Assembly (NCBI GenBank): GCA_964556395.1
Contig: CAZKVR010000001.1
Coordinates: 106,996-170,995, forward strand
Reading direction: 5' to 3'
Origin: an uncultured Methanosarcinales archaeon
GTDB lineage: Archaea; Nanobdellota; Nanobdellia; Woesearchaeales; WJKR01
DNA length: 64,000 bases
Part shown: one piece after another, positions 9,629 through 34,105 of the stretch
How positions within the stretch are numbered: the first letter of the stretch is position 1
Layout of the letters: the number at the start of each line of letters is the position of its first letter
Made by a program: the position numbers and the translations under genes
The notes under the pieces: model-generated
The model's input: only the letters and a program-made list of their open reading frames with translations
Database searches by the model: none
Told to the model about the DNA's origin: nothing

Positions 9629-9641
9629 AAGGATATTGTTT

Positions 9642-11938: not shown

Positions 11939-11971
11939 AATAGTATGTTTATGGTTGTTAATCCGTTATCA

Positions 11972-13834: not shown

Positions 13835-13844
13835 ATCGTTGTTG

Positions 13845-14875: not shown

Positions 14876-14998
14876 AGTCTTGTTTTGTTTTATTTTGTGA
14901 AACCTCTCCGGAGTCTCCGGAGCGGGGTTTAGTCGGATCGTCGCTCTTGACAGGGTTTTTTGCGGACCTTTTTCTGGAGATGTTGAACACGTATCCGG

Positions 14999-15415: not shown

Positions 15416-15433
15416 AAGCTTTTTTGTTTTGTT

Positions 15434-15772: not shown

Positions 15773-16245
15773 AGTATTATCCTTTTTACGGTTAATGGTA
15801 TCCTTTCATCGGAGACCTTCTGCTCGTAACGCATGATGTGCTTGTGCAGGATTGCTTCCGATAAGGGATATCTTAGGACGATTTTTTGGAGCAAGGTTCT
15901 TTTTTCCCACGAGATGTACGGGGTGCCGAGGAGGATTATCATCCGCCAGCGTATTTCCTGATCAGAAGTCATAATTTTCTCCTCGATCGTCGTGAACTCG
16001 CTCCCGACCTTCAACTGGTAATATCGAATACGGAGTTTTCCGTCGCACCTATTTCTGAGGCTCTTACAGAGACCTCTGAGGAACGAGCGTTGGGCCTTCC
16101 TTAATATTTGATTGTGATCCATATCATTTGTTTGAATAGTAATGAAAAAATCTTTTTCTACAGGTCGCGTCAGGATCAGGCACTTGAGTCCACGCCACAA
16201 CATTGGGCCTTCAATTTTACAGTTGTCGTCATCTGAGTTCGACAT
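15769..16245 (-). CDS. Hypothetical protein
   Basis: ORF only. Confidence 0.45.
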   Translation of the reverse strand: MSNSDDDNCKIEGPMLWRGLKCLILTRPVEKDFFITIQTNDMDHNQILRKAQRSFLRGLCKSLRNRCDGKLRIRYYQLKVGSEFTTIEEKIMTSDQEIRWRMIILLGTPYISWEKRTLLQKIVLRYPLSEAILHKHIMRYEQKVSDERIPLTVKRIIL

Positions 16246-16266
16246 TCTCTGTTTTTTCTCTTGTCC

Positions 16267-16758
16267 TTACCGTCCTTTCTTGTTCGACATCTTTTTTTCA
16301 GGGCGAGTTTCCATGCACCTCATGACCCGATAGCGCATGGGCAAAGGCCGTTCAATCCCTTTGAGATTTACGGCCAACCATGACGTGATACTTTTGAACC
16401 CCTGATAATAGTGCATTACTGCCTGGAGGAGTTCTTCGCCATCGTTGGCGGTCACCTCCCGGTAATAGACTAGCTTGTCATAGATCCCGTCATCTTCCGT
16501 CGAGGCGTAGTGGAACTCCTCATAGTAGTCATTCCCAGTGAGTTTTTTCATTCTGATGATATCGAATGAACCGTCTTTGTCAGTATCAGTGTAGCGTTTG
16601 TATATCGTCTTTTCCACTAAGCCACGGTCTGATATGACGACTATAGAGTCCAAGCGGGTCTCAGTAAGCCTCAACAAGTATGTAGAGGTATCCTTTTCCT
16701 GTGCTGAAGTCCAGAGTGAGACCGCTGACAACACCATTATAATTATTGTTTTTCTCAT
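16267..16758 (-). CDS. Secreted protein (start at MRKTIIIMVLSAVSLWTSAQ)
   Basis: A signal peptide begins at an internal Met. The upstream ORF extension is Arg/Gly-rich and not protein-like. Confidence 0.5.
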   Translation of the reverse strand: MRKTIIIMVLSAVSLWTSAQEKDTSTYLLRLTETRLDSIVVISDRGLVEKTIYKRYTDTDKDGSFDIIRMKKLTGNDYYEEFHYASTEDDGIYDKLVYYREVTANDGEELLQAVMHYYQGFKSITSWLAVNLKGIERPLPMRYRVMRCMETRPEKKMSNKKGR

Positions 16759-16826
16759 ATCGGCTATTTTTTTGGGTGACATCGACCGCTTCACGGATTC
16801 TCCGTCTGCGGCTTTTCGAACGCGGT

Positions 16827-17555
16827 TCATCCCAAGACGTTCAGGAGACCATCCCAGCGTTTGAGGAAGAAAGGGAGTGAGGTCGTCATCGGTCCTGAGA
16901 GGTCGTCCTCCTCTGATGCATGATGTTCGTCCTTTACGCCCCAAGAGTTTGAGCGGTCATTCCATACGATGGTGTAGAGGTGTGAACCTGATTCTTCTAA
17001 CAGGTCTCCGCAGTATAGAGGCTTGCCTCTATATTTGTAACCGGTCTCCATACCTTTCGCTGGTCGTTCTCGCCATTCAAGTCTTGAGAGGAGAATCGCC
17101 CTCACGTAGGGGTCTATGACTGTGAGCGTCCCTTTCTTCTGGTTTATCGCCTTGAGCTGCCTTCGTGACGTGCTCTCGATCCATGTCGCAAGGGGGTAGC
17201 CACGGAGGCTTTCCAGGTTATAGGGTATCTCTGACTCCCATATGTGCAGGGGGTTGTTGAGTATCGCATACGCGGTTGAGGGGAGGTAGATATCCCTTGT
17301 CAAGCGTTTCCGATAAAATGTGGGAAATCTTCTCTTGATGACCCACGGTATCTTATCGAGAACGTATGATACCCCATATAACAGTGAGAGCGATAGTATG
17401 ATGACTATCGGACCTGCTACGAGCATTCCTTGGGACTGGTATAACAACCTGCCAAGGACGATCCATGTGACGGCTATGAGCATTACGGCCAATACTGGTA
17501 CGAGCATCATGAGCGCCGTCTTTTCAGGCATTCTTCTTCTTATTATCTTCTTCAT
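16827..17555 (-). CDS. Membrane protein
   Basis: Two N-terminal TM helices are present. Confidence 0.5.
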   Translation of the reverse strand: MKKIIRRRMPEKTALMMLVPVLAVMLIAVTWIVLGRLLYQSQGMLVAGPIVIILSLSLLYGVSYVLDKIPWVIKRRFPTFYRKRLTRDIYLPSTAYAILNNPLHIWESEIPYNLESLRGYPLATWIESTSRRQLKAINQKKGTLTVIDPYVRAILLSRLEWRERPAKGMETGYKYRGKPLYCGDLLEESGSHLYTIVWNDRSNSWGVKDEHHASEEDDLSGPMTTSLPFFLKRWDGLLNVLG

Positions 17556-17977
17556 TTTCGCGAATTTTTATGTTCTTGTCCGATACTTATTCTGGTGAGG
17601 TATTCTTCTGCCTGTTCTTTCGAGCAGACCAGTTCTGGAAGCCCATCAAGATTCATGAACTGGAGGTATTTCCAGAGCTTTGGGGACGGCATCAGATACA
17701 TCCTTGTCGCTCTCGTAACCGACCTGAAGAGGCGGCTGCAAAGTAGGATGGCGTGCATGCCGTAGAGGTCTATGCTCTCGACTCCTGTGAGGTCGAGGAT
17801 TATAGGGATGTTTCTCTTCATGGTTGCGGAAGCTTCCACGAATTCGGACTTGAAGAGTTTTAAGTCCTGATTGTTGTTCTTATCGCCGTTCGTCAGAGCG
17901 GCTCCGGGGGCGACCTCTAGTATAGCGTAGAGCATGCCGTCACCCGTCTTCGAGTATGATTCTGTTAGTATCCTCAT
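17552..17977 (-). CDS. STAS-domain protein (SpoIIAA-like anti-sigma-factor antagonist fold)
   Basis: The segment IILDLTGVESIDLYGMHAILL matches the STAS core pattern. Confidence 0.55.
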   Translation of the reverse strand: MRILTESYSKTGDGMLYAILEVAPGAALTNGDKNNNQDLKLFKSEFVEASATMKRNIPIILDLTGVESIDLYGMHAILLCSRLFRSVTRATRMYLMPSPKLWKYLQFMNLDGLPELVCSKEQAEEYLTRISIGQEHKNSRK

Positions 17978-18474
17978 TTCTTATGCTGGTTTTGGGTTTG
18001 TAATCTTTCTTTTTTCATCTTCGATAACCATCGGGCGTGCCGCTTCATCTTCTTAATCTCTTTTGACAATAGTAGCAGAAGCCCGACGATGATTATCGGG
18101 GCGAGCCAAGAGTGGATCGATGGCGGCATGGCCGAAGGTTTCAGCATCGGCATGCAGATCACCAGCAAGGAGTAGGTGATGCTGCAGAAATGTATCCTGA
18201 AGAATGTTCCTTCAGCTCTCATGCGAGGCGTCTTCCTCGGTATGAAGACTGGTACGAGTATGAGAAGGAGGAACATGGTCAGCGATGACTTCATCCAGGA
18301 AAGTTCGTCATATGTCAATACGACGGTCAACCCGACGAAGGCGCATAGCATTCCGGAGAATGCGTCTGTTCTTCGGTGCTTCTTGATGACTTTGTGTATT
18401 CCGAAGAATTTGAAGAAGTAGAAACCGAGCAATATAGTTATTATAAATACAAATATGGTTATGGGCAGAGACAT
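17974..18474 (-). CDS. Membrane protein
   Basis: Four or five TM helices are present. Confidence 0.5.
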   Translation of the reverse strand: MSLPITIFVFIITILLGFYFFKFFGIHKVIKKHRRTDAFSGMLCAFVGLTVVLTYDELSWMKSSLTMFLLLILVPVFIPRKTPRMRAEGTFFRIHFCSITYSLLVICMPMLKPSAMPPSIHSWLAPIIIVGLLLLLSKEIKKMKRHARWLSKMKKERLQTQNQHKK

Positions 18475-18492
18475 TCGTGTTCCTTTCGGTTT

Positions 18493-18999
18493 TTAGGTGT
18501 TTGTCAGTGATTCTCGTAATAGCTGGGAAACGTCTCTTAGGCGTTGGACGCTTCTAGCGACGTACTTCTTGGCATGGTGGTCGTGTATCACATGCCAGAC
18601 GGTAAAATCCCCTTGGATTCTGTGGTTCTCGGCGAGGGTTCGGTACTTGAGCCAGTAGGAGACTTTTCTCCAAGGCACTCCTAGTTCAGGGTCTCCTATG
18701 TAGATGGTCTCCCCAGTGATATCTTCAAGGTCCGGGGATTCCAGGTAGGGTGAACGTATGATATCGATCGTTTCCGTCCTGAGCATCCTTAGAGGGGGCA
18801 GAATCGTTGACAGCCGGAGATTCTCTGCGTTCTTGATGAGGTCTGCTAGACCTTCTTCCCGTTCCAAGTGTAAGGCTGTCTTCAGCAGTTCGAGAAGGGA
18901 CTGTATCTTGTTGTCCTCGTCCTCGATAGCCAATAGTCTTATGTCGAGGCCTGTCAGGAGTTCTGAGAGGTCCTCTTTGAATAGTTGTTTCTCGTCCAT
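18493..18999 (-). CDS. Hypothetical protein
   Basis: ORF only. Confidence 0.45.
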   Translation of the reverse strand: MDEKQLFKEDLSELLTGLDIRLLAIEDEDNKIQSLLELLKTALHLEREEGLADLIKNAENLRLSTILPPLRMLRTETIDIIRSPYLESPDLEDITGETIYIGDPELGVPWRKVSYWLKYRTLAENHRIQGDFTVWHVIHDHHAKKYVARSVQRLRDVSQLLRESLTNT

Positions 19000-19009
19000 T
19001 TTTTATTTT

Positions 19010-19861
19010 TTATTTGTATCCGCTCGCCATGGTTGATTGTTCGTTCCAGGCGTTTCCGTAGAGTAAATTTTTCACGATAACTGATATGTCAGTAGCCCGG
19101 GATGTGGTGTGCAACAGTCTTAGGAGTTCTGAAGTGTCCTTGATGCTCTCCGGTATCCGTTCGAGCGCTTGTTCAGCATTCTTTGTGAGTTGGTCTTCAG
19201 TGCCTGCCGGTATGACCCACAGTACCTTTCGCTTCCGAATCTCCAGGAACTCCATGAGTATGAGTTCTCTCCTGACTAGTCGGGACTGGCATATCGATAA
19301 GAGTCCTTCCCGCGATTTGTTTACGACCGCATCTAGCGCTACGTGCTCGTACCACCTGCATTCCTTTTGGAACTGTAGGAAAAGATAGTTATGATAGCAA
19401 TAGTTATCAGCGAGAGAGAAGAAATCCTTATCTATCGAGATGATATTCTCTTCGACCAAACGCGATAGCACCGCTTTGAGGGTTTCGTGGCAGTCGTGAG
19501 GCTTCCGATGCTTCAGGCACCACAGGTATAATATCTCTGCGGGCCTCAGTTTCGGTATTAATTTTTCTTGTGCCATAGGTAGATCCTTTTTTGAATTTTT
19601 GAATATGAATCCTGGTAAAAGCAGCATTGTGACTGCTGCGAAGCACAGAATGAGGTTGATGAGATACGAGACCATCCCGGCTGCTAGGAGTGACGCAGGT
19701 ATGAAGATAAGTCTGGCGTAGCCGACAACCATTCTCTTGAACGATTCGAGGTTGTGTCTCATGACAATCTGTTTTAGGATTGTGAGAAGAAGGGGCGCGG
19801 CACCCTTGATGCCATCCGCGCCCTCTTGAGATAGTCTTACTTCCTCTGATGTTCGGATCAT
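19010..19861 (-). CDS. Hypothetical protein with internal TM helices
   Basis: ORF with hydrophobic segments. Confidence 0.45.
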   Translation of the reverse strand: MIRTSEEVRLSQEGADGIKGAAPLLLTILKQIVMRHNLESFKRMVVGYARLIFIPASLLAAGMVSYLINLILCFAAVTMLLLPGFIFKNSKKDLPMAQEKLIPKLRPAEILYLWCLKHRKPHDCHETLKAVLSRLVEENIISIDKDFFSLADNYCYHNYLFLQFQKECRWYEHVALDAVVNKSREGLLSICQSRLVRRELILMEFLEIRKRKVLWVIPAGTEDQLTKNAEQALERIPESIKDTSELLRLLHTTSRATDISVIVKNLLYGNAWNEQSTMASGYK

Positions 19862-20478
19862 CTTGCCTTCCAGGGATTGTCTTCTCCCATAAGATAGTGT
19901 TCTCCTCCGCCTTCTATGGCAGCGTAAGGTACGACGTCCGTGATGACGAATCGTGGATTCCCGTATTCCGGAGCGATGTCAAGATATTCCTCCAGTGTCT
20001 GTATGACTCCTCCCATCATCCCGCCTGGCAGGAAGGTTCTCAGGGTAAGAGGATACTTCTTGACATATGGCAGCAGTTCGTGATAGCCCCACACCTTGTC
20101 TTCTAAGTCTCGTCGGACGGTGTAGGTGGTTTCGGGTTTCTTCTTCGGCTTCAGTACCTGGCCACCTGGTATGATGACGTTTCCGTCCGCCCAGAGGGCT
20201 GTGACTTTTTCAGGGTTCTTTCCAGTATACTCTTTTCCGTCTTTCCTGATTGTCATCTGTTGCCCTTTCCGGTAAGAGACTCTTCCTATCTCCTTCGCTT
20301 CGGTATGGAGGGTTTTGAAGAGGAATGATTCCATCTCCGTCGGATACCCTTTCAGTTGTTTCTCGAAAGCCTCTTGTCGCGCTTTCTGCTCTGCTGCTTT
20401 TTCGTCTTGCGGCTGTTCTTTCTTGCAGCCCGTTACAAATGCGATGATGATCGCTGCGATGATGATTGTTTTTCTCAT
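19858..20478 (-). CDS. Lipoprotein (lipobox VTGC)
   Basis: The N-terminus is MRKTIIIAAIIIAFVTGCKKEQ. Confidence 0.55.
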   Translation of the reverse strand: MRKTIIIAAIIIAFVTGCKKEQPQDEKAAEQKARQEAFEKQLKGYPTEMESFLFKTLHTEAKEIGRVSYRKGQQMTIRKDGKEYTGKNPEKVTALWADGNVIIPGGQVLKPKKKPETTYTVRRDLEDKVWGYHELLPYVKKYPLTLRTFLPGGMMGGVIQTLEEYLDIAPEYGNPRFVITDVVPYAAIEGGGEHYLMGEDNPWKAR

Positions 20479-20548
20479 GATTGAAACGTTTTAGATTAGA
20501 CATAAATGTTATTTTAACTGTTTTTGATGTCTTTTGGCGTGTTCTCGT

Positions 20549-20929
20549 TTAGAGGAATGCCACGACACCGTATTTTAGGTCTTCCAGGCTCGTGTAGAAT
20601 ACCAGTTTCTTCCTGCTTATCCCGAGTATCTTGGCTTTGTTCGCTATCCTGTCCGGAACGATGAGATGGCAGGTGATGTCTTTCTCACCAGCCAGTTCTG
20701 CTATAGGGACGAGAGTCTCGAGATATGAGGTCTGGATGCTCCTAAGGTCTATGGCGACGTTTTTTCGTCCTTTGAGGATGCTATTGACGTGCCTCTTGAG
20801 GAATAAGACTGTGAGCTTCCGATTCTGTATTGGTCGTCTCTTCAGAGACAGTAAGGGCATCTCGCCTCTTAAGGTTTTTATGGAACCTTCAGGCTTGGTG
20901 ATCTGATTGTTAGCATTCTTTTTTTCCAT
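20549..20929 (-). CDS. STAS-like small protein
   Basis: The region VAIDLRSIQTSYLETLVPIAELAGEKDITCHLIVPDRIANKAKILGI resembles an anti-sigma antagonist. Confidence 0.4.
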   Translation of the reverse strand: MEKKNANNQITKPEGSIKTLRGEMPLLSLKRRPIQNRKLTVLFLKRHVNSILKGRKNVAIDLRSIQTSYLETLVPIAELAGEKDITCHLIVPDRIANKAKILGISRKKLVFYTSLEDLKYGVVAFL

Positions 20930-20940
20930 TTTTTTGGTTT

Positions 20941-21801
20941 TTATTTGATAAAGACTGTTATGTTCTTGAAGACTATCTTGGAACCTTCTTTTTCCAGTAT
21001 CAGCGAGCAGGCTCGCTCCTCTTCGAAACCCTTGCTATAGGCTGAGACCTTGAGGGGTTCTATGGCAAGGTGTCTTGCAAGTTTGTTGTAGGCATCCTTG
21101 ACATTGGAGGCCTCAAAGTGAGTCGAGAATGATGGGTTGTAGTGCCATAACGCCTCGTCGTGCGGCGTGAAGAAGCCGTCTGCGGGCGTCAGCCGTACCA
21201 GTCCGGCAACCTCTTCCCTTTGTAATCGGAACATTTCAGGGAGTTTTGGGTCGTTGGTCAGGTCCTTGAGCAGTTCTTCGGCTTGTATGTCGGTATCTGC
21301 TTCCGTGAGTATCGGACCTTCCACGAGTTGTAGCGTGTGGAAAATCCTCTTGTTAAGGCTGACTGACCTCATGTTTCTCATCATCGTCGTCATCCTCTTC
21401 GCCGTGGCTTTCCGATGGAAGTCGCTCATCGAGAGGTAGAATGAGATGCCTTTCACACCTTCGAGACATGACTTCTTCACCACTCTCTCATAGGCTTCCG
21501 GGGAGATGATAATATGCACTCCGTCAGGGAAGCGGAATACGAGTGAGTGGATCGCCTGGGAGGAGGATGGGTCGAATCCGACTCTTGAGATGTCGAGTAT
21601 CAGGGCACTTTCAGCCGCAATCCTTGGTAAGACCTCATATTTGAGGAATTGCTTGGCATTGCGGCAGGTCAGCTTCTTCTTGAGAGCGAACACTGGCACC
21701 GTTCCGGAGCCTTCCATGTGCTCGCTCCTTGGATTATACGATAGTTTCATTTTCATTACTTCGTCAATATTGGCGTTTTTCTGTTTTGAAAAGAGCGACA
21801 C
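20941..21801 (-). CDS. Hypothetical protein
   Basis: ORF only. Confidence 0.45.
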   Translation of the reverse strand: MSLFSKQKNANIDEVMKMKLSYNPRSEHMEGSGTVPVFALKKKLTCRNAKQFLKYEVLPRIAAESALILDISRVGFDPSSSQAIHSLVFRFPDGVHIIISPEAYERVVKKSCLEGVKGISFYLSMSDFHRKATAKRMTTMMRNMRSVSLNKRIFHTLQLVEGPILTEADTDIQAEELLKDLTNDPKLPEMFRLQREEVAGLVRLTPADGFFTPHDEALWHYNPSFSTHFEASNVKDAYNKLARHLAIEPLKVSAYSKGFEEERACSLILEKEGSKIVFKNITVFIK

Positions 21802-21867
21802 CCTCGAACCTTGTTCACGTTCCTCAAAGGACGTGGATGGTGTGGGTGTCTCGTGTCAGAAATTTTT

Positions 21868-22452
21868 TCATAATACTACAATCCTTGGCCAGAAGGCCAG
21901 TATTCCTAACAGTATCGCGTTCAATGCGGCTAGCAGGTACAAACCGTTCTTCAATTGTTTCTTGTCCAAGCCGATTAACTTGACCTGCGGTCCGGGTTGG
22001 TTCTCGTCCTCGGTCCATCGGTTGATGTATCCGATGCTTAGGTATGCTTGGTATCCAAAGTAAGCTGCTATTAAAAGCTGGAGGAATGGGATGATAGATC
22101 TTGATTCTCCTATCCATGAAAGATATATTAGCGCAGAGTAATATATGAAATTCAACGATAGCAGCGCGAAGAGCGAGGCTATAACTGCTATACTAGGACC
22201 ACCGTAGCGTTTCTCGAAGCCGAGCTTATTGATAGAGATTACCAATATCAGGACTGTTGTGAACAATGAGAGTATGACTGCAGCCCCGTGGCGTACCTGT
22301 GATGAGAGGCGCTCTGGGATGTCGATATCTCCCAGGCTTGTGAGCAGGCTCATCGGCTGCAGTAATAGTATGAAGAGTGCGGCAGTGGCAAGTACTATGA
22401 TGACGCCTCTTGATAAAAGGCTCTTCTTGGTGATTGTGGCGTGTTGTTGCAT
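21868..22452 (-). CDS. Integral membrane protein
   Basis: About six TM helices are present. Confidence 0.5.
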   Translation of the reverse strand: MQQHATITKKSLLSRGVIIVLATAALFILLLQPMSLLTSLGDIDIPERLSSQVRHGAAVILSLFTTVLILVISINKLGFEKRYGGPSIAVIASLFALLSLNFIYYSALIYLSWIGESRSIIPFLQLLIAAYFGYQAYLSIGYINRWTEDENQPGPQVKLIGLDKKQLKNGLYLLAALNAILLGILAFWPRIVVL

Positions 22453-22473
22453 GTATCTTTATGTTTTGGTGCG

Positions 22474-22893
22474 TTATCGTTTGTCCTTATTCGCTTTTTC
22501 CCCGAATTTCACCCTTATCCTTCGTAACTCCCGTACCTGTTCTTCCGCGAGGAGTATCATGGCGGTGTCTGCCGGGTTGTCCGCGTCGAAGTGCACTGCC
22601 GGCTGTTCCGAATACAGGTCGGCGACGTAGTATCGTTTGATCTTCGTGCCGTCCCCCATGGACACCGTGTACACCGCTAGGTGGTCTTCCGCGACTTTCC
22701 AGTAGTATTCTTCTCCTTCTTCAGGGGCGGGGTCGTAGGTGAACGCCAGTGTGGAGTCGGAGGTGTCATAGTATCTCTCTATGTCGCCTGTTTGCTGGCA
22801 ATAGTACGTCGGTTCTTGTTGTTCTGGCTGTGCTTGCTGGCAGCCGATGATGATTAGTCCTAGTAGGATGAGTGTTTGTCTCATAAGATTCAT
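22474..22893 (-). CDS. Lipoprotein
   Basis: The N-terminus is MNLMRQTLILLGLIIIGCQQ. Confidence 0.5.
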   Translation of the reverse strand: MNLMRQTLILLGLIIIGCQQAQPEQQEPTYYCQQTGDIERYYDTSDSTLAFTYDPAPEEGEEYYWKVAEDHLAVYTVSMGDGTKIKRYYVADLYSEQPAVHFDADNPADTAMILLAEEQVRELRRIRVKFGEKANKDKR

Positions 22894-22996
22894 TTTTTTT
22901 GTTAATACGTTTTTTTTTAGGGACTTCTGGAAAAGTATCCTTGTGAGGGGGCGCTTCCCTCTTTGGTTGGCGCCCCGTCACGAGCGGAGGTCTGCG

Positions 22997-23371
22997 TTAT
23001 TGTGGCGGCCTCTTGGGTACGATGAAGACCTTCTCGTGCTCTGAATCGTCCAGCAGGTAGTCCTTTAGTGATGCTGCGTAGACTCCCATGTAGTCGTCAT
23101 AGGCTTCGAGGGTGTCGTTTATGGCATGTTTGTACACCACCTGGTAGACATCCTCGTCTGCATCTATGGTTGTTATGTAGAGTTCGTAGAAGCCGTCGAC
23201 GAAGTCTTCGCTTGCCGTTCCTGAGAGGAGCAGGTCTACTATCTTTGAGTCTGCTGGGGAGTAGAGGTCTGCTGCCGTATTGACGGTCTTTTTCGTGTCT
23301 TTCTCCACCTGTCCGTAGCTTGTTGCTATGGTGGCGAGCATGATTGTTATTATGATGATGTTTTTTCTCAT
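22997..23371 (-). CDS. Secreted small protein
   Basis: A signal peptide is present. Confidence 0.45.
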   Translation of the reverse strand: MRKNIIIITIMLATIATSYGQVEKDTKKTVNTAADLYSPADSKIVDLLLSGTASEDFVDGFYELYITTIDADEDVYQVVYKHAINDTLEAYDDYMGVYAASLKDYLLDDSEHEKVFIVPKRPPQ

Positions 23372-23548
23372 GAGTTTTTTGCAGTTTTGTTAATATCTTT
23401 CGAAAAAGGACACTTGTTAAAAGTGCCCTTCCTCAGGAATTGTTTAGTTTGCAGAAGAATCCTTTGACGTGTAATCAAGTTTTTCTGCATTGCTGATGAC
23501 GTGGTTTCCGATCGGATGCTCTAGTGCGATGCTTTCCTGATGTTCACT

Positions 23549-23890
23549 TTATTGGGAACCAGTCCAGGTGTAAGTGTATTCTTCACAGGCTGAAAGAGTG
23601 TAAGATCTTGTGTGCCAAGTGTGCTGGTATCCTGTCGTGGAAGCCCAGAGCGTGATGCTTCCTGCGTCGATATCTTTGTAAGTTGTGAAGCTTCCAGGGT
23701 TTATCCATCTTTCATCATTCATTTCGCTTGACCCGTAGGTGACATCTACTACGATTTTCGTGCTGGTGTTGTTTTCGACAACAACAGTGCCGTGGTTGTA
23801 TTTTTCGCAGTCTTCCTCTTGCTCGCAACTAATGGCGAATATTGCAATCGTTGCAATGAGGACTGTTGAAATAGTGCTTGTAAGTTTCAT
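23549..23890 (-). CDS. Lipoprotein (start at MKLTSTIST). Shares a conserved upstream leader with gene 23974..24453
   Basis: The lipobox is AISC. The ORF-track extension uses a TTG start. Confidence 0.5.
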   Translation of the reverse strand: MKLTSTISTVLIATIAIFAISCEQEEDCEKYNHGTVVVENNTSTKIVVDVTYGSSEMNDERWINPGSFTTYKDIDAGSITLWASTTGYQHTWHTRSYTLSACEEYTYTWTGSQ

Positions 23891-23973
23891 AAGCTGTTGA
23901 TTTTTTTGGTTGAACAATGGTTTGACCTACCTGGCAAGGTATTTTGGGTTTTTGGAGTATCTGTATAGGTTTT

Positions 23974-24453
23974 TTATAACGAGAACCCGATAGAGATGTC
24001 TATCGCAGCGCCGTCATAAACTCTTGAATAAAGGTATCCTATGCCTATCTTGAAATCGATGTTTTCTCCGCCCCACCTATATCCTCCTATGAAGTTTACT
24101 GTGCCGCTCACATCATCCACTTCTCCGTTGATCGTCTGGACAGCATTAGTCGTGCTGTAGCCCAATGCTGTATACCATCCGTCTTGAAAATAGTCTTGAA
24201 TCCCATACCAATAGAGTGAGATATCAAAACATCCGTAGGATGCATCAGCTATGGAAGGGGCAAATTTATGCCAACCGAACGCTATGCTAGTGTTATCAAC
24301 AAAATATTCTATACCTACAAAACCTGTCATGTCTGAAAGGCCTGCTCTTAGATAAGTGTTCTCGTTTTGAATGTCACTTTGGGCATTTGCTTCAGTTGTA
24401 GAGACTAAAGCCAAAGCGATGACAACTGTTGAAATGATAATTGTAAGTTTCAT
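23974..24453 (-). CDS. OMP-like beta-barrel protein (signal peptide plus amphipathic beta-strands)
   Basis: The N-terminus is MKLTIIISTVVIALALVSTTEANAQ. Segments GYRWGG and GIGYLYS show the alternating pattern. It is paralogous in style to genes 39980..40453 and 40505..41080. Confidence 0.5.
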   Translation of the reverse strand: MKLTIIISTVVIALALVSTTEANAQSDIQNENTYLRAGLSDMTGFVGIEYFVDNTSIAFGWHKFAPSIADASYGCFDISLYWYGIQDYFQDGWYTALGYSTTNAVQTINGEVDDVSGTVNFIGGYRWGGENIDFKIGIGYLYSRVYDGAAIDISIGFSL

Positions 24454-24949
24454 AAGCCGTTAAATTTTTGGTTGAACAATGGTTTGACCTACCAGGGACG
24501 GTAGTTTGGGTTTTTTGGAATAGTTTTTGAAATGCAATACCTCCTTTCTTATTTTAAGAGTTTTTTGATGAAATAGAAGAGGTGGGCGTAGATAGAAAGA
24601 ACGCCCAACCTCCTGAAAAAGAATCGCTTGAAGTTCATTGAGAATTTGAACCGAATGTGTTGTTCTTTATTAAGAATGAGAGCCTAAAGCGGTTCTAGGA
24701 AGTAATCTACTCTTTCACCGCCGAACAGCGTTCTCTTCCTCCTTACGCTTCCTCGGGAACCTCTTCCTTGTTTTGCGAATTCGGCTGCAGCTGGAGCGAG
24801 GGTGTCTTTAGCAACCTCGTCTTGTGAAGTCCTTTCAAGGACTTTGGCTGCCCGGTCCGCATCTTTTTCGGCGATTGTCGTCTTAACATCCGGTATGATG
24901 ACTGGATTTGTGTTGATGTGGGGAGTGGAAGGACATGTTGTATTAGGTA

Positions 24950-25207
24950 TTAGTCTTCCGTTTTCCCATACATAATGTAACATATTGCTTTTCCTCCTTT
25001 CTTTTTGTTCTGTTTGTCGCTTTTTTCCTCTTTCTCTTCCTGGTTGATTTGGGAAGTCGCTCCAGCGGTGGCGAGAGCGCCGAGAGGAGTTGCGAATAAG
25101 CTCAGACCGCCGGTAAAGGGAGCGGCCACTATGGTCGCTATAGTCCATGCTATGCCATATCCCTTCACATCTCTCCTTTCTTCATTATAATCGCGTGCCA
25201 TTTTCAA
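24950..25207 (-). CDS. Small Gly-zipper membrane protein
   Basis: The hydrophobic stretch is GIAWTIATIVAAPFTGGLSLFATPLGALATAGA. It partly overlaps ORF 24684..25148. Confidence 0.35.
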   Translation of the reverse strand: MKMARDYNEERRDVKGYGIAWTIATIVAAPFTGGLSLFATPLGALATAGATSQINQEEKEEKSDKQNKKKGGKAICYIMYGKTED

Positions 25208-25415
25208 AGCCTCCTTTCTTTTTTGTCAATTTGGTTATTATTAAATTGAAAACTGTATGTAGTGTGAGGAAAATATCTATGAGAGACTTGCGCGGATAGG
25301 AAGAAATGTCCGGCATCATTAGAAAGGATCATTTGAGGACCTCGTTGACTCCTCTCTTTTTCCTCGGCGTCTCTCTCCGTTGCTAATGCCTCAAAGATAT
25401 CCTTCTTGTTGTTCT

Positions 25416-25952
25416 CTAGGCCGACAGTCCCGCTTTCTCCATGAGGTATTCCCACAAGGGTGGTATCGTGATGTCGAATCCGCTTTCCTCATGGAGGTTT
25501 TGCGTGTACTCGCTCGCTTTCTCCAGCATCTCTATCCAGTTGCCGCTCACATTTTCGAATAGCGAGTTACTTCCTTGTACCAGTATGATGGCATGATCGT
25601 CGGAGCAGAGCGCCAGCGTCATGCATTCTGCCTTCTCATCCTTGTCGTCGGGCCAGAATCTTCCTGCGGCGACTTGTGCTGTCGTGATCGGCAGGGTCAC
25701 TGTCAACAATACCTCGTTGCCTATCCAGTCGCGGTAGGTGTCCATCTGGTCATGGATCGGCCAGATGCCTTCTACAGAGCAGGCTTCGATGTCGTCTCCT
25801 TTCTCCATCATGGTTTGTATCTTCTCTTCCATCTCGTTGATGTCAAAAATGCTTCGTAGGACTCCTTCGAAATACTCGTCTATCCATTCTCTCAGGATGA
25901 TTACTTTCTTTGCGTTCTCTTGGTCTTTCGGAGTTTGCTGTAGATTTTTCAT
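25416..25952 (-). CDS. Hypothetical cytoplasmic protein
   Basis: ORF only. Confidence 0.45.
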   Translation of the reverse strand: MKNLQQTPKDQENAKKVIILREWIDEYFEGVLRSIFDINEMEEKIQTMMEKGDDIEACSVEGIWPIHDQMDTYRDWIGNEVLLTVTLPITTAQVAAGRFWPDDKDEKAECMTLALCSDDHAIILVQGSNSLFENVSGNWIEMLEKASEYTQNLHEESGFDITIPPLWEYLMEKAGLSA

Positions 25953-26071
25953 AACTCTATTTTTAGGTGTTTAACAATATTTGATATTTAGTCTGGCGGT
26001 ACGCCCTTTTCTTGTCCGTCCAGGGCGAGGATAGGTGTCTTACACCGTACCGGCCGGTGGTTCGTCGTGGT

Positions 26072-26470
26072 TCAGTCGTTCGTCTTTCGGTATGGGCAGA
26101 TGAGTTCGTCGACGCCTTCGTATGCGTCTTCGTTGACGAGTTCCTCTAGGGATCGTTCGTCCGTGGGTGCTAGGGTCGTCGGGTGTTCGTCCACCATTGG
26201 TGGCCATTCGTGTGCTTGTGAAAACAATGGGTATTCTTCTATCATATCTGGTGATTTTGCTTGTTGCTGTTTTTCCGTCGTGAGAGCTGTTTTTTCGGTG
26301 GTTTTCCGTCGTATCTCTTGTTTTGATAGTGCTCTCGCTAAGAATTCTGGGTGTCCCAGAGCCGTTCTCGAGGGGTTTTTCACCGTTGGTCTCGATCTTT
26401 GTGGCTGTGGGTTTGCGACGCATGTCTTTGGCTTGTTGTCTTCGCGAATCGTGGTTCGTTCTGGCGACAA
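26072..26470 (-). CDS. Hypothetical acidic, disordered protein, possibly third gene of the ATPase operon
   Basis: The ORF lies downstream of gene 26604..28640 on the same strand. A TATATA sequence sits in the gap. Confidence 0.35.
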   Translation of the reverse strand: MSPERTTIREDNKPKTCVANPQPQRSRPTVKNPSRTALGHPEFLARALSKQEIRRKTTEKTALTTEKQQQAKSPDMIEEYPLFSQAHEWPPMVDEHPTTLAPTDERSLEELVNEDAYEGVDELICPYRKTND

Positions 26471-26603
26471 TGCCTGTGGTTGGTGTAGAGTCCCTCGTTA
26501 GGGATTCTTGCGTTTGTGCGGCGTCGCTGTGGTTGTGTGATGTGTTGTTGAGTGTGAGTTCGTCGTGAAAGACGAGGTGATATATAAGGATTGCGATTTG
26601 TAA

Positions 26604-28640
26604 CTACTTATTGGTGGCTAAAACTTTATCCACTTGTGCCGTGTGGTTCACCCGGGCGTACTTGGTCCAACCCTTCTCAGACCGTTCCTCCTCGACGAGG
26701 ATGGCGTCCTTCTCCTCCAGGGACTTCTTCACCTCGTTCCCCTTCCGGGGAGAGAAACCCGCTTCCTTATACAATTGCGATATCGGCATGCCGGGCTTGT
26801 CCTTCGCCGCCTTGAGGAATGCCAGCTCCTCCGCAGAAAGGCTGAGGGGCTTCTCTGCTCGAGCAGCAGCCTTTCTCGCCAGTCTCTTCGCCAGGCCTGA
26901 CCGTTTGATGTACTGGAACGTGTGCATGACATCCGCCCGTTTGAATCCTGCTTGCAGGAACCATTTCCGCAGTTCGTCGAAGCCTTCCCCGTTGAGCATG
27001 CGCTTCTTCGCCTGGTCGAGAATCTTCTGCTGCAAATGATTGCGGATACCATAGCCCGCCGGCCCGTCCTGCACCTTCTTGTGGTGCTCGTCCTGCGCCT
27101 GCTGCGCCGCTTTACGCGCCTCGTCGAATTGCAGGTGTTCTTTCAGCACGGTCCTGTTCGGCTCGGTCCCGCTCTTGATGAACGTGTACTCGAGCTTTGA
27201 GAGTTTCCGCGCCAGTTCTTCTTCTTTCACGCTTTTCTCGAAGACTTCTTTGCGTCTCTTCGTCTTGAGCAGCGCCTTCATCCGCTCTCGCAGATCGTCA
27301 TCGTCGATGGCCTGGCTTTTCAGCCTCATCAAGGGTGCCTTGATGACGAACGGCTCGTGGTGGCGTTCCACCAGTCGCACGAGCGCCTCACCCACTGGCA
27401 ACTTGGTGAAGAACTCTTTCTGGTCGCGTAGTTGCATGAGCCTGCTGATGGCTTCCACGTCCGCCGGGAGCATCTGTTGGAAGGCGATGTTCGTCGCCGA
27501 GTTACCTGACACGACGTCGGACAGCTTGCTGACGTGCTGGTCCAGCGTTATCAATGAGACGCCGTACTCTCGGATCTCTCGGAAGATGACGTCGGATATC
27601 GATTCGGAGATGAAGTTGGGGCGTTCCTTGAGGAAGATGTTGTGCGCCTCGTCCACCAATACCGCGTAGCGGAACTTCTCGGTCGGGTCGATGTTGCCGG
27701 CTTTCGCGTACTTGTAGATGTAGGAGAGCATGAACTGGGTGAAGAACTTCTTCTCAGTGTTGGACAGCGCCGCCAGTTCCATGACGGTCTCTTCGCGGAA
27801 GAGCTCTTCGATGCTGCTCTCCTCAGGCCCCTTGTAGCAGATGGCTTTCCCGAAGTTGCCGAACGTCAAGGCATAGGCGACTCGCAACGCTGATTCGAGC
27901 CATTCCGACTCGCGTGTCTTCCGAGTCTGGGCTTGCGCCTTCTCTTCCAGCCGGTCCCTGATCTGGTACCATGTCGGGTAGTTTTCCGAGCCCGCGTAGA
28001 CTCCGAAGTCCTTGTACGCCTTGTCCAGGGTTTCGACGACTATCTTGTGGACGCCGAACGATCCTGCGAACACTTCTGTGATGATGTCTGCCAGGAGGCT
28101 GACCCATTCCAGTGGTTCGACGCCTTTGGGTGGCTTGTTGATGTTGAGCTTGAAGTTGGCGACCTTGTCGTTGCCGACCGTGTACACCCTGAGCTTGTCG
28201 TTCAGCTTTACGAGTGGCCGGAAGCTTTTCTTCCAGTCGAAGACGAGGAATGGTTTCTTGTTGAAGATGAAGTTCCCTAGGACTTGGAATGCGAAGGTGG
28301 TCTTGCCGGATCCCGACATGCCAGTCACACAAACATGCCGCATCCAGTCCTGTTCTCGCAAACCAAAAGGATAGAGTTCTTTCTTACCGTACATCACCGT
28401 GCCGAGGGGGTACTTGCCTTGGATGACGTCTTTCTTCGGCGGTTCCAGGAGCAGTTGCTCGTTCAACAGACTGTCGGTCAGGTGTTTTTGGTACAGGGCG
28501 TTGATGGCTTGTTCCATCTCGGCTTTGGCGTCCCTGTCCGTGGTGAGGACGTATTTGAGGTAGAGTTGGTCGATTCTCTTGCCGAATATCGGCCTGAGCC
28601 GCCTGCAGATGTCCTCGACGCTGTTCGTCCGGCTGTGCAT
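26604..28640 (-). CDS. HerA/FtsK-superfamily (DUF87-like) P-loop ATPase with a C-terminal winged-helix domain
   Basis: Walker A is GMSGSGKT, Walker B is VLVDEAHNIF, and a sensor ITLDQ is present. A C-terminal HTH-like stretch reads MPISQLYKEAGFSPRKGNEVKKSLEEKDAILVEE. Confidence 0.75.
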   Translation of the reverse strand: MHSRTNSVEDICRRLRPIFGKRIDQLYLKYVLTTDRDAKAEMEQAINALYQKHLTDSLLNEQLLLEPPKKDVIQGKYPLGTVMYGKKELYPFGLREQDWMRHVCVTGMSGSGKTTFAFQVLGNFIFNKKPFLVFDWKKSFRPLVKLNDKLRVYTVGNDKVANFKLNINKPPKGVEPLEWVSLLADIITEVFAGSFGVHKIVVETLDKAYKDFGVYAGSENYPTWYQIRDRLEEKAQAQTRKTRESEWLESALRVAYALTFGNFGKAICYKGPEESSIEELFREETVMELAALSNTEKKFFTQFMLSYIYKYAKAGNIDPTEKFRYAVLVDEAHNIFLKERPNFISESISDVIFREIREYGVSLITLDQHVSKLSDVVSGNSATNIAFQQMLPADVEAISRLMQLRDQKEFFTKLPVGEALVRLVERHHEPFVIKAPLMRLKSQAIDDDDLRERMKALLKTKRRKEVFEKSVKEEELARKLSKLEYTFIKSGTEPNRTVLKEHLQFDEARKAAQQAQDEHHKKVQDGPAGYGIRNHLQQKILDQAKKRMLNGEGFDELRKWFLQAGFKRADVMHTFQYIKRSGLAKRLARKAAARAEKPLSLSAEELAFLKAAKDKPGMPISQLYKEAGFSPRKGNEVKKSLEEKDAILVEEERSEKGWTKYARVNHTAQVDKVLATNK

Positions 28641-28642
28641 TC

Positions 28643-29131
28643 TTATGCCTCCGGGCCGTTGAGGAGGCCGTCGATCATGCTGGCGTTGTTCTCTTGTTCT
28701 CGGAACTCGTGCATCCGGTCCCTGAGCTCTTTCTTGAGGTCTGCGATGTCTCGGAACGCGTTGATCTTCTCGTTGAGCTTGAATGATTCTATGTCGAGCA
28801 TCTTCTCCTTGAGCTCGGCCCGTTTGACCTCGTCGATCTTATCGCCTGCCGCTGCGAGGAAGTTGTTCATGTTCATCATGATCTGTTCGACATCCTTGAA
28901 CACGTCTTTCTGGAGGTCCTTGCGCTCGTCGATGAGGCTTTCGATGTCGTCGATGACCTCTTTCGTGTTCATGATCTTGGCGCCTTGGATGTCTTTCAGG
29001 ACGGAGTCCATGGACGTGTCAGTGTAGTTCTCCTTGACGTCGTCTACAGTGGGCATGAGCTTGTAGTCCTTAGAGGGTTCCTCGTTGCGCAGGAAGCCGT
29101 CCAGGAGTTCGTTGTCGAGCGTGTCAGCCAT
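28643..29131 (-). CDS. Acidic coiled-coil protein, co-transcribed with the ATPase (2-nt gap)
   Basis: Heptad-rich helical sequence. It sits immediately upstream of gene 26604..28640. Confidence 0.6.
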   Translation of the reverse strand: MADTLDNELLDGFLRNEEPSKDYKLMPTVDDVKENYTDTSMDSVLKDIQGAKIMNTKEVIDDIESLIDERKDLQKDVFKDVEQIMMNMNNFLAAAGDKIDEVKRAELKEKMLDIESFKLNEKINAFRDIADLKKELRDRMHEFREQENNASMIDGLLNGPEA

Positions 29132-29246
29132 TGTCGTGCCTCTTTTTTACTGTTTGGAGTCGGGAAAACCCTGAAAAACCGAGGGAAACGGTTTCTTTCT
29201 TACCGAGTGATAGAGAAGGTCCTATATAAAACTTTCCTTTTTTGTT

Positions 29247-30500: not shown

Positions 30501-30737
30501 GTGATGAAGACTACAATCCAGCTCGACAAGCAGACCATCAGTCGCCTGCAGGAGCACAAGCTCTATCCGAGGGAGCCATACGACGCCATCGTCAACCGGC
30601 TCATTGACGAAGCAGAGGATGACGAAGAACTCACCCCTGATGAGATCAAGGATATCGAGGTTGCCCTGGAGCAGGTGAAGCAGGGTAAGACTATCAGAAT
30701 CGAGGACCTCGCGAAGGAGTTGGGTGTGAAGCTCTGA
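30501..30737 (+). CDS. RHH-type antitoxin (type II TA)
   Basis: An N-terminal beta-strand TTIQLDKQT is present. The stop overlaps the start of the RelE gene. Confidence 0.7.
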   Translation: MMKTTIQLDKQTISRLQEHKLYPREPYDAIVNRLIDEAEDDEELTPDEIKDIEVALEQVKQGKTIRIEDLAKELGVKL

Positions 30738-30988
30738 TGTACGCTCTCGAATTCTCGGATGAGGCCGCGAAGACTATCAGGAAACTACCCAGGAACGAGC
30801 GCGACCGCATCCTCAAGAAGATACAGAGCATCCGCGACTACCCCTTCGCGCATCTCAAGAAGCTGGAAGGCAATACGTTCTGGCGCCTCCATATCGGCAA
30901 GTACCGCGCCATCGTGGATGTCATCGTGTCCGGCAGGCGCATCATCGTCCTCAGGATCGGGAAGCGTGGCGATGTCTACGACCGCTGA
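30737..30988 (+). CDS. relE: RelE/ParE-family toxin
   Basis: The protein is about 83 aa and contains ...FWRLHIGKYRAIVDVI...RIGKRGDVY. Confidence 0.8.
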   Translation: MYALEFSDEAAKTIRKLPRNERDRILKKIQSIRDYPFAHLKKLEGNTFWRLHIGKYRAIVDVIVSGRRIIVLRIGKRGDVYDR

Positions 30989-33023: not shown

Positions 33024-33149
33024 GGCGGTGGTGAGAATATGGTTCTTCTTAAGGGTTTGGATGGTGGTTCTCTAGAAAACCAGTTGAATATTAAAAAAAC
33101 CAATTGGTTTCCAAAAAGTTTATATAGTTTCGAACGAAACCAAAAGAAT

Positions 33150-33722
33150 ATGGAAGGAGTCAATAAGGAAAGCTATGAAGAAGAGGACGCTTATACGAAG
33201 GTGTTGTACTGGTTCTTCGCCCACCCCACCATTGAAGTCAGCCTCAACGACCTCGTCGAGGCGGTGAACATCTCCAAGACCTCGGCGAACAAGGCCGTGC
33301 ACAGGCTCGTGGATGAAGGATTCCTTCGCCTCAAGCAGCTGGGACGGCTGTGGCGCATCACTTGTAACCAAGAGCACGAGTACAACATCACCAGGAAAGT
33401 CCCGTTCAACCTCCAGACAGTCTACCAGGCAGGCATCCTCGAAGAGATTCGCAAGCGCATCCCGAACCCCCGCGCAGTCGTGCTCTTCGGCAGTTATCGC
33501 AAGGGCGACGACACGGAGGAGAGCGACATCGACATCGCAGTGGAAGTGATGGATGACAAGGATTACAGGATAGTGGAATTAGGGGTCCTCACGACCTTAG
33601 GTTTCCGCGAGCACGTGCCCGTCAACCTGCACGTATTCTCACGCAACCATGTGGACCTCAACCTGTTCGCCAACATCGCCAACGGCATCGTCCTTGAAGG
33701 GTTCCTGGAGGTGCGACCATGA
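33150..33722 (+). CDS. MNT-type nucleotidyltransferase with N-terminal wHTH (antitoxin of a HEPN/MNT pair)
   Basis: The GS...DxD motif reads VVLFGSYRKGDDTEESDIDIAV. A TATA box TTTATATAG lies 24 nt upstream of the ATG. Confidence 0.75.
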   Translation: MEGVNKESYEEEDAYTKVLYWFFAHPTIEVSLNDLVEAVNISKTSANKAVHRLVDEGFLRLKQLGRLWRITCNQEHEYNITRKVPFNLQTVYQAGILEEIRKRIPNPRAVVLFGSYRKGDDTEESDIDIAVEVMDDKDYRIVELGVLTTLGFREHVPVNLHVFSRNHVDLNLFANIANGIVLEGFLEVRP

Positions 33723-34105
33723 GGAGGAAACGTCCCGATATCAAGAACGCCGACAGCCTGCTGGAGGCCAGCAAGAACACCCTGAGGTTCACCATGAAGC
33801 TGGAGGTGTCGGAGGAGTCGGCCGACACTATCATCAGGAACGTGCACGAGGCGTTCCGGATGCTCGGCGAGGCATTGCTTCTCAAGCAAGGAGGGGTCGC
33901 CGTCGATCACACCCAGCCGATCGAGGCCCTCATCCGCACGAACGTCCAAACAGAGAGGCCCTTGTCGGTGTTGACGACCATCAGGAAGACGAGGCATTCC
34001 ATCAATTACTACGGCTACCGGCCGACGGTGGCGGAAGCGCGGGATGCGGTGTCTGTGGCCGAGGCTTGTTTCGACAAGCTGGCAGAACATGTCAAGAGCC
34101 TATAG
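33719..34105 (+). CDS. HEPN-domain protein (putative toxin partner)
   Basis: The protein is all-alpha and about 128 aa. It contains an RKTRHSINY Rx(n)H-like motif and overlaps MNT by 4 nt. Confidence 0.55.
   Translation: MRRKRPDIKNADSLLEASKNTLRFTMKLEVSEESADTIIRNVHEAFRMLGEALLLKQGGVAVDHTQPIEALIRTNVQTERPLSVLTTIRKTRHSINYYGYRPTVAEARDAVSVAEACFDKLAEHVKSL

Follow-up and report, generated by a model that had tools for sequence, protein, structure and literature searches.

FtsK, SpoIIIE and the Streptomyces protein TraB, all of the FtsK-HerA superfamily, combine a ring motor, a linker and a C-terminal winged helix in that order, and the C-termini of TraB recognize direct 8-bp repeats in clt (PMC4447253). 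The same arrangement is predicted for an ATPase encoded, together with an acidic coiled-coil protein, by a two-gene operon in a 64,000-nucleotide (nt) stretch of contig CAZKVR010000001.1 from an uncultured archaeon placed by GTDB in the Woesearchaeales (the whole stretch is hereafter called the window), and here, as in TraB, short 8-bp words adjoin the gene. We put at roughly 0.4 the probability that the pair forms a chromosomal ring DNA motor which is loaded or regulated through its winged helix at repeats flanking the operon and which works with the coiled-coil protein as its partner, a reading that draws on sequence, on structural models and on analogy. The pair has so far been found in Woese-, Pace- and Nanoarchaeia (GTDB phylum Nanoarchaeota) alone, where it is a chromosomal module.

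The likeness to FtsK and TraB has limits. Those proteins have a membrane anchor, whereas none was seen in either protein of the window pair on reading the sequences (no dedicated predictor was applied) and the N-terminus of the ATPase is modelled as a soluble helical bundle. The motor has no match to the FtsK_SpoIIIE domain (PF01580), and the winged helix resembles those of MarR, TrmB and F-93, FtsK_gamma being matched by only 1 of 27 homologous domains. The window ATPase further differs in having an obligate coiled-coil partner, an archaeal lineage and no evident genome-wide polar motif.

Archaeal HerA shares with the ATPase a RecA-like core, a C-terminal helical region and Walker A and B motifs (Foldseek E ∼1e-12 to 4d2i and 9x1m), but the window protein is only 13–17% identical to it, lacks the HAS barrel and has in addition an arm, a basic domain and a winged helix, and no NurA, Mre11 or Rad50 genes lie nearby. 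CedB and CedD occur in Crenarchaeota, and their defining features have been described (PMC11868833). Apart from an uncharacterized serine-rich protein family, CedD is the best named sequence match of the ATPase (66 bits), and the C-terminal domain of VirB4 superposes on it with a TM-score of 0.74 (normalized to the target); however, the window protein scores a tenth of the cut-offs of these families, has neither a transmembrane segment nor a VirB4-like N-terminal domain, and no CedA/VirB6-like or pilin partners are conserved near the pair. The ATPases of defence systems, SIR2-HerA, DUF4297-HerA, mad8 of MADS and DndH, are of the same fold class and among its top structural matches, but the pair has no SIR2, DUF4297, methyltransferase or Dnd partner and sits in a chromosomal housekeeping setting. 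Finally, Orc1/Cdc6 is likewise an ATPase with a C-terminal winged helix and has repeated binding sites (origin recognition boxes) beside its own gene; it is of the AAA+ class, in contrast to the HerA/FtsK class of the window ATPase, and cumulative GC skew has no turning point at the pair, giving no sign of an origin.

Results

An acidic helical hairpin encoded next to a basic ATPase

28643..29131, minus strand: gene of the coiled-coil partner, an open reading frame (ORF) of 162 residues, isoelectric point (pI) 4.47
26604..28640, minus strand: gene of the ATPase, an ORF of 678 residues, pI 9.36, 2 nt downstream of the coiled-coil gene

Both ORFs and the 2-nt gap are as claimed in the original prediction, which rested on the letters of the window. 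The junction reads GGAGGCATAAGAATG, with the GGAGG Shine-Dalgarno sequence for the ATPase placed within the 3′ end of the coiled-coil gene, and the two genes are apparently translationally coupled. The products contrast in charge, with a pI of 4.5 for the acidic partner and of 9.4 for the basic ATPase. That the operon is uncharacterized is borne out by its generic public labels (‘DUF87 domain-containing protein’, ‘ATP-binding protein’ and ‘hypothetical protein’) and by literature searches on DPANN archaea with HerA, FtsK or DUF87 in the library consulted, in which nothing specific to the pair was found.

AlphaFold2, run on an alignment of 46 homologues, models the coiled-coil protein as a single antiparallel hairpin of helices 41–98 and 101–157 with a predicted local distance difference test score (pLDDT) of 82, preceded by a disordered N-terminus of ∼40 residues that bears an LLDGFL motif. 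The hairpin (residues 41–157) holds the conserved segment NEKINAFRDIAxLKKELRD. At least 459 proteins belong to the family, every one of them labelled ‘hypothetical’; a Pfam scan returned no domain, only scattered coiled-coil noise, and PADLOC gave no match. A fold search with the hairpin returned generic, non-significant matches alone (YscO, the iSH2 region of PI3K p85 and Vipp1), YscO being the top one at E 0.14.

The ATPase is a distinct branch member with a C-terminal winged helix

28416..28640, minus strand: ATPase residues 1–75, N-terminal three-helix bundle (AlphaFold2 helices 8–19, 21–32 and 36–59)
27306..28415, minus strand: ATPase residues 76–445, RecA-like core of the HerA/FtsK superfamily (Pfam DUF87 and HerA_C, Foldseek)
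27051..27305, minus strand: ATPase residues 446–530, long charged helical arm or linker (AlphaFold2 helices 447–471, 473–490 and 496–525)
26850..27050, minus strand: ATPase residues 531–597, very basic small helical domain, pI 11 (AlphaFold2)
26607..26849, minus strand: ATPase residues 598–678, winged helix-turn-helix (AlphaFold2 topology, profile matches)

The AlphaFold2 model of the whole ATPase has a pLDDT of 86, with the arm lower at 57–83 per 10-residue block. Three helices (residues 8–59) and one β hairpin (residues 77–94) precede Walker A, and the three-helix bundle, for which Pfam and NCBIfam scans gave no family match over residues 1–75, occupies the position of the HAS barrel in canonical HerA. 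The predicted GMSGSGKT and hhhhDEAH motifs are present as Walker A (residues 107–114) and Walker B (VLVDEAH, residues 327–333), and their key residues are invariant: across 57 homologues R101, H102, G107, G110, G112–T114, D330–H333 and Q368 do not change. R101 aligns to the ARH segment immediately preceding Walker A of Sulfolobus solfataricus HerA (4d2i), whose arginine we take to be the trans-acting finger of HerA, and R101 is a candidate arginine finger of the window ATPase.

Pfam DUF87 and HerA_C match the ATPase with scores just over their cut-offs, and the best Foldseek matches of the model are DndH-C, HerA, HerA-NurA, SIR2-HerA, DUF4297-HerA and VirB4-C (E 1e-10 to 1e-13, probability 1.0 to HerA, VirB4 and DndH), the top matches sharing 13–17% identity with it. 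Matches to named sequence families are partial or poor. The best in NCBIfam is the serine-rich family (84 bits against a cut-off of 650), followed by CedD (66 against 600), CedB (26.5 against 700), VirB4 (18.5 against 590) and TraC (13.9 against 567), and the two HerA models NF040937 and NF040819 score 18.0 against 800 and 11.6 against 970. In PADLOC the window protein reaches 55 bits with mad8 and at most 34 bits with the HerA models, and eight relatives are alike weak, at no more than 60 bits. PF01580 has no match in the window ATPase at E ≤ 0.1 and weak sub-threshold matches in three distant relatives, and matches to P-loop_TraG are confined to distant relatives, at or under the cut-off. 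Because it has no HAS barrel and scores far under the cut-offs of the named families, the ATPase forms a family of its own within the HerA/VirB4 branch of the FtsK-HerA superfamily and is an orthologue of no named member. It clusters neither with housekeeping HerA nor with a known VirB4/TraG family, either of which would have told against the original prediction.

In the model, residues 603–664 have a helix-helix-helix-strand-strand topology. Per-member Pfam scans of 27 homologous C-terminal domains gave F-93_WHD in 9/27 (best 1.3e-5), TrmB in 9/27, MarR in 3/27 and FtsK_gamma in 1/27, while a profile of the domain found no match among PDB sequences. On the modelled topology and these profile matches the predicted C-terminal domain is upheld as a winged helix of the MarR/TrmB/F-93 type. 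Y624, S630 and R632 are invariant and K633, G657 and K660 nearly so; the recognition helix begins with S-x-R-K-G-N, a start that is invariant or nearly so.

The pair is conserved on archaeal chromosomes

A word-indexed search found at least 786 relatives of the ATPase, the best 120 at 44–94% identity, and an exhaustive profile search found 535 clusters at 50% identity with E ≤ 1e-30. All the named relatives are Woesearchaeota, Pacearchaeota or Nanoarchaeia, bar one labelled Thermoproteota, and the contigs that bear them reach 1.29 Mb; a scan of genome contigs with an unspecific Walker A pattern gave at least 14 loci. When the pairing was sought in other archaeal loci it proved to be conserved: a hidden Markov model found a same-strand coiled-coil gene ahead of the ATPase gene in each of the 18 close-relative loci for which upstream DNA is available (16 loci plus L081 and L145). 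The two genes abut or overlap in about half of the loci. In the others (L002, L009, L010, L011, L012, L013, L015 and L016) 1–5 small ORFs stand between them, up to 1.9 kb in L009, which are mutually unrelated and not conserved; in such loci a copy of the 8-bp word described below frequently lies just past the coiled-coil stop.

The association extends unevenly to more distant relatives. In L022 (430 bits) a coiled-coil homologue with the signature WRDI..L.KEL (E 5e-9) overlaps the ATPase start, and an Orc1/Cdc6 gene follows 26 nt downstream of the ATPase gene; in the distant relative L024 a zinc-ribbon membrane protein takes the upstream place of the coiled-coil protein. A sister group at 250–450 bits (P0263/L022, P0264 and P0345/L024) has the same motor and a winged-helix-like S.YRGN segment, after which comes a domain judged PD-(D/E)xK-like by eye (..VDIEA..VEVETGKS..) that has no family match, and P0264 additionally carries a RecJ-like DHH/DHHA1 domain. 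These nuclease-like domains, recognized from sequence, support DNA as the probable substrate of the ATPase.

The two closest genomes with long contigs, L001 and L021, share with the window the gene order FEN1, EamA, Trm5b, coiled-coil, ATPase. Identity to the window in L001 and L021, respectively, is 72.5% and 69.5% for the ATPase, 72% and 68% for the coiled-coil protein, 69% and 70% for Trm5b, 70% and 73% for FEN1, and 56% and 59% for EamA. Since the identities of the ATPase and the coiled-coil protein match those of FEN1 and Trm5b, the pair evolves as informational housekeeping genes do. In other lineages the neighbours differ yet are housekeeping genes, among them those for rpS15, a RecJ/Cdc45-like protein, rpS3Ae, thermosome, FtsZ, GatD, EF-1alpha, ribosomal proteins, RNase HII and DnaG, as well as tRNA genes.

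The plasmid partition, conjugation or defence setting suggested by the original prediction is not what the relatives show, as their contigs are large and chromosomal and their neighbours include ribosomal, tRNA and replication genes. A scan of 30 ORFs, a subset of those in the window, revealed no integrase, and no recurrent integrase, type IV secretion gene or defence partner was found among the neighbours of relatives. NurA, Mre11 and Rad50 were absent from the scanned window ORFs, from the called neighbours of the fetched loci and from the 25 commonest families among neighbouring ORFs (100 ORFs, 13 further loci). A virus or provirus origin was rejected, as no relative occurs in 2.9 million viral contigs. 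Against viral models the ATPase matches HerA- and VirB4-like phage proteins, and viral packaging ATPases poorly (TM-score ∼0.25); the PHROG matches are partial (a terminase model at 51 bits, mainly over the Walker A segment, and an unnamed family at 38 bits).

One caveat to the chromosomal housekeeping reading is a break in synteny with L001 and L021 that falls precisely where the ATPase gene ends on its 3′ side. Past that point, from ∼8800 to 26000, the window holds ∼17 kb of co-directional minus-strand orphan ORFs with a G+C content of 44–52%, against about 55–57% upstream. In this island no Pfam match was found in 17 ORFs scanned, no PHROG match in 7 checked, and no integrase or tRNA; several ORFs at 22474..24453 have signal-peptide or lipoprotein-like N-termini. 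Because synteny stops where it does, we call ∼8800..26000 a variable ‘dark matter’ island.

A tandem 8-bp word usually flanks the pair

29223..29236, minus strand: BRE/TATA promoter of the pair (GAAAGTTTTATATA), a TFB recognition element (BRE) and TATA box conserved in L020, L001 and L021
29163..29188, minus strand: 26-nt leader element TTTCCCTCGGTTTTTCAGGGTTTTCC, unique in the window, 0 expected by chance
29173..29180 and 29163..29170, minus strand: 5′ tandem direct pair GGTTTTTC-a-GGTTTTCC, 10 bp apart, inside the 26-nt element
29139..29142, minus strand: Shine-Dalgarno sequence GAGG, 7 nt before the ATG of the coiled-coil gene

The TATA box predicted in the 115-nt leader is present, and the BRE/TATA is kept in L020, L001 and L021 though the flanking leader diverges; most other loci have TATA-like boxes at the equivalent position. 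The Shine-Dalgarno stretch AAAAAAGAGG is invariant in four aligned leaders, and the 26-nt element is conserved in relatives at 70–94% protein identity.

Regulated expression had originally been proposed from the TATA box and two hairpins of the leader. The putative regulatory signal there is a conserved DNA repeat and no RNA fold. Both L001 and L021 lack the hairpin AAACCG..CGGTTT, and GGGAAAACCCTG, the second one, is one copy of the conserved tandem 8-bp repeat. Leader RNA hairpins were rejected as the leader folds no better than its shuffles (z = +0.63; 142 of 200 shuffles as good) and the consensus fold has no compensatory change.

The core of the leader element is the 8-bp word G[GA]AA[AT]ACC (GGAAAACC, GAAAAACC or GAAATACC), which in more distant loci turns up on either side of the pair, ahead of the coiled-coil gene and past the ATPase gene. 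Counted over 19 loci (251 kb), the word occurs at 4.76/kb upstream of the pair (within 200 nt) and at 4.48/kb downstream of it (within 500 nt), against 0.56/kb within the module and 0.29/kb elsewhere, a flank enrichment of ∼16-fold. An unbiased 8-mer count returned the same three words as the top flank words, each in 10–12 of 17 non-redundant loci, with enrichments of ∼33-fold for GGAAAACC and GAAATACC and 8-fold for GAAAAACC. The copies are often tandem and direct, 10–11 bp or one helical turn apart, and the flanks account for 21 of the 23 such pairs in ∼250 kb. In a comparison with shuffled sequence, 69 words and 19 pairs were observed in the flanks, whereas mononucleotide shuffles give 1.9 and 0.04 and a conservative shuffle that preserves context gives 14.8 and 1.6. 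Seven loci have exact copies at both ends, and in 6 of them the repeats of one end are oriented opposite to those of the other. When metagenome contigs were scanned for the 18-mer GGAAAACCCYGRAAWACC, 2 of 120 matches adjoined the module, a query of that length yielding mostly chance matches in so large a collection.

In Pacearchaeota-type loci (L009, L011, L016 and L019, and likewise in the alignment consensus) the words lie within the first ∼70 nt of the coiled-coil ORF, where they encode conserved residues that have no other explanation, ENP from GAAAACCC and WNTS from TGGAATACC. Conservation in the disordered N-terminus of the coiled-coil protein may there reflect the DNA word and not the peptide.

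The 3′ flank and a second site

26580..26587, minus strand: TATA-like box (TTATATAT), 17 nt past the ATPase stop, identical in L020
26384..26574, minus strand: C/A-rich, G/T-poor stretch of ∼190 nt (sense strand)
26331..26381, minus strand: conserved block GAAAAACCCCTCGAGAACGGCTCTGGGACACCCAGAATTCTTAGCGAGAGC, conserved in L020, L001 and L021
26358..26381, minus strand: 24-nt composite element within the conserved block
26269..26307, minus strand: 3′-flank repeat cluster GGAAAACC-acc-GAAAAAAC ... GGAAAAAC, opposite in orientation to the 5′ pair
26072..26470, minus strand: suggested third gene, a TTG-start ORF that overlaps the 3′-flank elements and is no conserved member of the module
41087..41168, minus strand: second site with the same elements, composite element 41145..41168 and tandem AAAAACC-cg-AAAAACC 41087..41104

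The TATA-like box after the ATPase has equivalents in L001, L021 and L022 and is the predicted start of a separate downstream unit; similar C/A-rich stretches follow the ATPase gene in L001, L020, L021, L009, L011, L014 and L016. The possible third gene of the original prediction does not hold up. It has no family match, its exact product is called in no public source, unlike those of the other two genes, no other locus has a homologous gene after the ATPase, and single-base indels relative to a 94%-identical relative disrupt the frame within the first ∼30 codons. The conserved elements in this stretch are most simply read as non-coding.

A mini-ORF was weighed for block 26331..26381, which in the window and in L001, L020 and L021 can be read in one frame as the peptide (V/A)KNP.R.AL.H..(F/L)LARA(L/I). 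The open frames around it measure 141, 96, 25 and 52 codons in the four genomes, and in L001 and L021 the frame ends overlapping the ATG of the next gene. Variable sites are spread 7/5/9 over the codon positions (counted by eye), and at 41.1 kb the paralogous copy of the block precedes the first possible start codon. These sequence comparisons favour a non-coding element over a mini-ORF (KNP..FLARAL).

The window contains two copies of the 24-nt composite element, where 0.17 would be expected. Its second occurrence belongs to the site at 41 kb, directly upstream of the ATG of an orphan gene (40505..41080) that is unrelated to the pair. The minus-strand region 41087..41400 begins with a promoter-like region (∼41360..41400), followed by a C/A-rich, G/T-poor leader of ∼300 nt and then by a GGAAAACCC..AGAGA.GCTCT element and the tandem AAAAACC pair just before the ATG; this layout matches the 3′ flank of the ATPase gene. 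On its sequence, the site may be a sign of a small regulon, or of a class of leaders that are long and C/A-rich.

Other features near the pair

Two toxin-antitoxin-like pairs, at 30501..30988 and 33039..34105, interrupt the conserved FEN1-EamA-Trm5b block and are absent from the equivalent places in L001 and L021. One consists of DUF7557 and a ParE toxin, the other of a MarR-like nucleotidyltransferase (MNT) and a weak, below-cut-off HEPN match. Large proteins of surface type are encoded a few genes downstream of the module in two loci: L004 (10751..13770) encodes a protein of more than 2282 residues with a lytic transglycosylase (SLT) domain, L145 (12651..20302) encodes VWA, fn3 (faint match) and CHB_HEX_C_1 proteins, and L010 and L012 have in common a protein of ∼700 residues at 33% identity.

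Discussion

Our results suggest how such a pair might work. The ATPase would form a hexameric ring, as expected from its structural relatives, and would translocate DNA. Its winged helices would bind the tandem 8-bp direct repeats (G[GA]AA[AT]ACC, 10–11 bp apart) that stand on either side of the operon and at a few sites elsewhere, and this binding may both autoregulate the operon and give the ring an oriented loading site on double-stranded DNA, by analogy with the FtsK-orienting polar sequences (KOPS) and with clt for TraB. Domains that are tethered to a single ring could bind head to tail on direct repeats spaced by one helical turn, which would orient loading. The invariant start of the recognition helix is also in keeping with a DNA word that retains its core from one order to another. 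The acidic hairpin would be a stoichiometric partner of the basic ATPase, acting either as an adaptor or as a gate on its basic DNA-binding surfaces, and the cellular role of the pair would lie in chromosome maintenance or segregation.

Several observations weigh against this proposal. The link between the repeat and the winged helix is circumstantial: no covariation was found between the repeat variant (GGAAAACC or GAAATACC) and the residues of the recognition helix, and the independent locus L145 is without the word, having GGAAAGTG-t-GGAAAGTG upstream of the TATA box instead. The word also occurs in the leader of the unrelated orphan gene at 41.1 kb, so that a different regulator might recognize it, or it might characterize a class of leaders. 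The window has no genome-wide excess or polarity of the word, leaving guidance of the KOPS kind unsupported, and the membrane anchor that FtsK and TraB have was not seen.

The word in the leader of the orphan gene also suits an ATP-dependent transcription regulator, whose winged helix would bind operators at its own promoter and at the promoters or leaders of downstream variable genes while the ring would do no more than sense or remodel, with no purpose in moving DNA. The repeats adjoin or fall within promoter regions, following the TATA box in the window, L001, L002 and L021 and preceding it in L004 and L007; a TATA box and a repeat-bearing leader come after the ATPase stop, the second copy of the elements precedes an unrelated gene, and the winged helix is of a MarR/TrmB type, some homologues being labelled ‘MarR family regulator’ by the Joint Genome Institute (JGI). 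On the other hand, a 450-residue ring motor with invariant catalytic residues would be a costly sensor, and relatives bear nuclease-like domains. The position of the repeats is also awkward for an operator in some loci, since the tandem pair lies no more than 20 nt past the ATPase stop in L008, L017 and L019 and overlaps the last ATPase codons in L007, in each case far from the next gene start. We consider a regulator unlikely.

The nuclease-like domains point in turn to a HerA-NurA-like DNA repair or recombination motor, which would act on ends or junctions with a nuclease in trans and with the coiled-coil protein as adaptor. The closest solved folds include HerA, HerA-NurA and DndH, the fused PD-(D/E)xK-like domain of distant relatives (with the RecJ-like DHH/DHHA1 domain in one) suits such a motor, and FEN1, RecJ/Cdc45-like, RNase HII, DnaG or Orc1/Cdc6 genes lie near the pair in several loci. 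However, by a rough estimate replication and repair neighbours are no commoner than chance in small genomes, no nuclease gene is conserved beside the module in the clade, and the HAS barrel is missing from the ATPase. Nor would an end-resection machine be expected to have flanking repeats or a winged helix that is sequence-specific, and we regard this function as distinctly unlikely.

The break in synteny at the ATPase 3′ end, followed by the orphan island of lower G+C, raises a third alternative, in which the ATPase serves that island as a DNA pump or defence ATPase in a mobile-element, conjugation or anti-virus function. Archaeal ‘dark matter islands’ commonly hold HerA-like ATPases (PMC4158269). 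The best non-trivial matches of the protein are CedD (DNA import), mad8 (a defence system) and DndH, and oppositely oriented end repeats, as found in 6 of the 7 loci, would also suit an element. Yet these matches stay far under the family cut-offs (66 against 600 bits for CedD; at most 60 bits in PADLOC), no integrase, type IV secretion or effector partner appeared in the ORFs scanned, and the viral contigs hold no relative. The divergence of the pair equals that of informational genes and its neighbours are housekeeping genes in most lineages, so a mobile or defence function is improbable.

A protein-handling or secretion ATPase, with the hairpin as a central stalk like FliJ/YscO in type III secretion ATPases and with downstream secreted or membrane proteins as its clients, is very improbable, for although YscO is the top fold match of the hairpin, the next gene has a membrane or signal-peptide N-terminus in 9 of 17 loci (read by eye), the window has secreted or lipoprotein genes a few kb on and L145 has VWA and fn3 (faint) proteins downstream, the YscO match is non-significant (E 0.14) and helical hairpins match each other generically, small membrane proteins are abundant throughout these genomes, which makes adjacency weak evidence, and the ATPase bears a conserved, predicted DNA-binding winged helix.

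To return to the chromosomal ring motor, a bolder form of the proposal would make the pair a core, sequence-guided DNA pump of Nanoarchaeota chromosomes, of a class not recognized before, that loads at the tandem 8-bp repeats through its winged helix, is gated by the acidic hairpin and serves FtsK/TraB-like chromosome segregation or resolution at division; more speculatively, such a pump could move DNA between cells where they are in contact with the host. In this full form we think the proposal rather unlikely.

DPANN archaea have tiny genomes. Because the pair is kept across whole orders in such genomes and changes as slowly as FEN1, it is likely that it does something central in these cells. 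The segregation, resolution and exchange of DNA in DPANN cells are largely obscure, and the module offers a concrete candidate for them. If the proposal is true, a design of motor, winged helix and 8-bp word hitherto associated with the FtsK branch of the superfamily would be found in its HerA branch as well.

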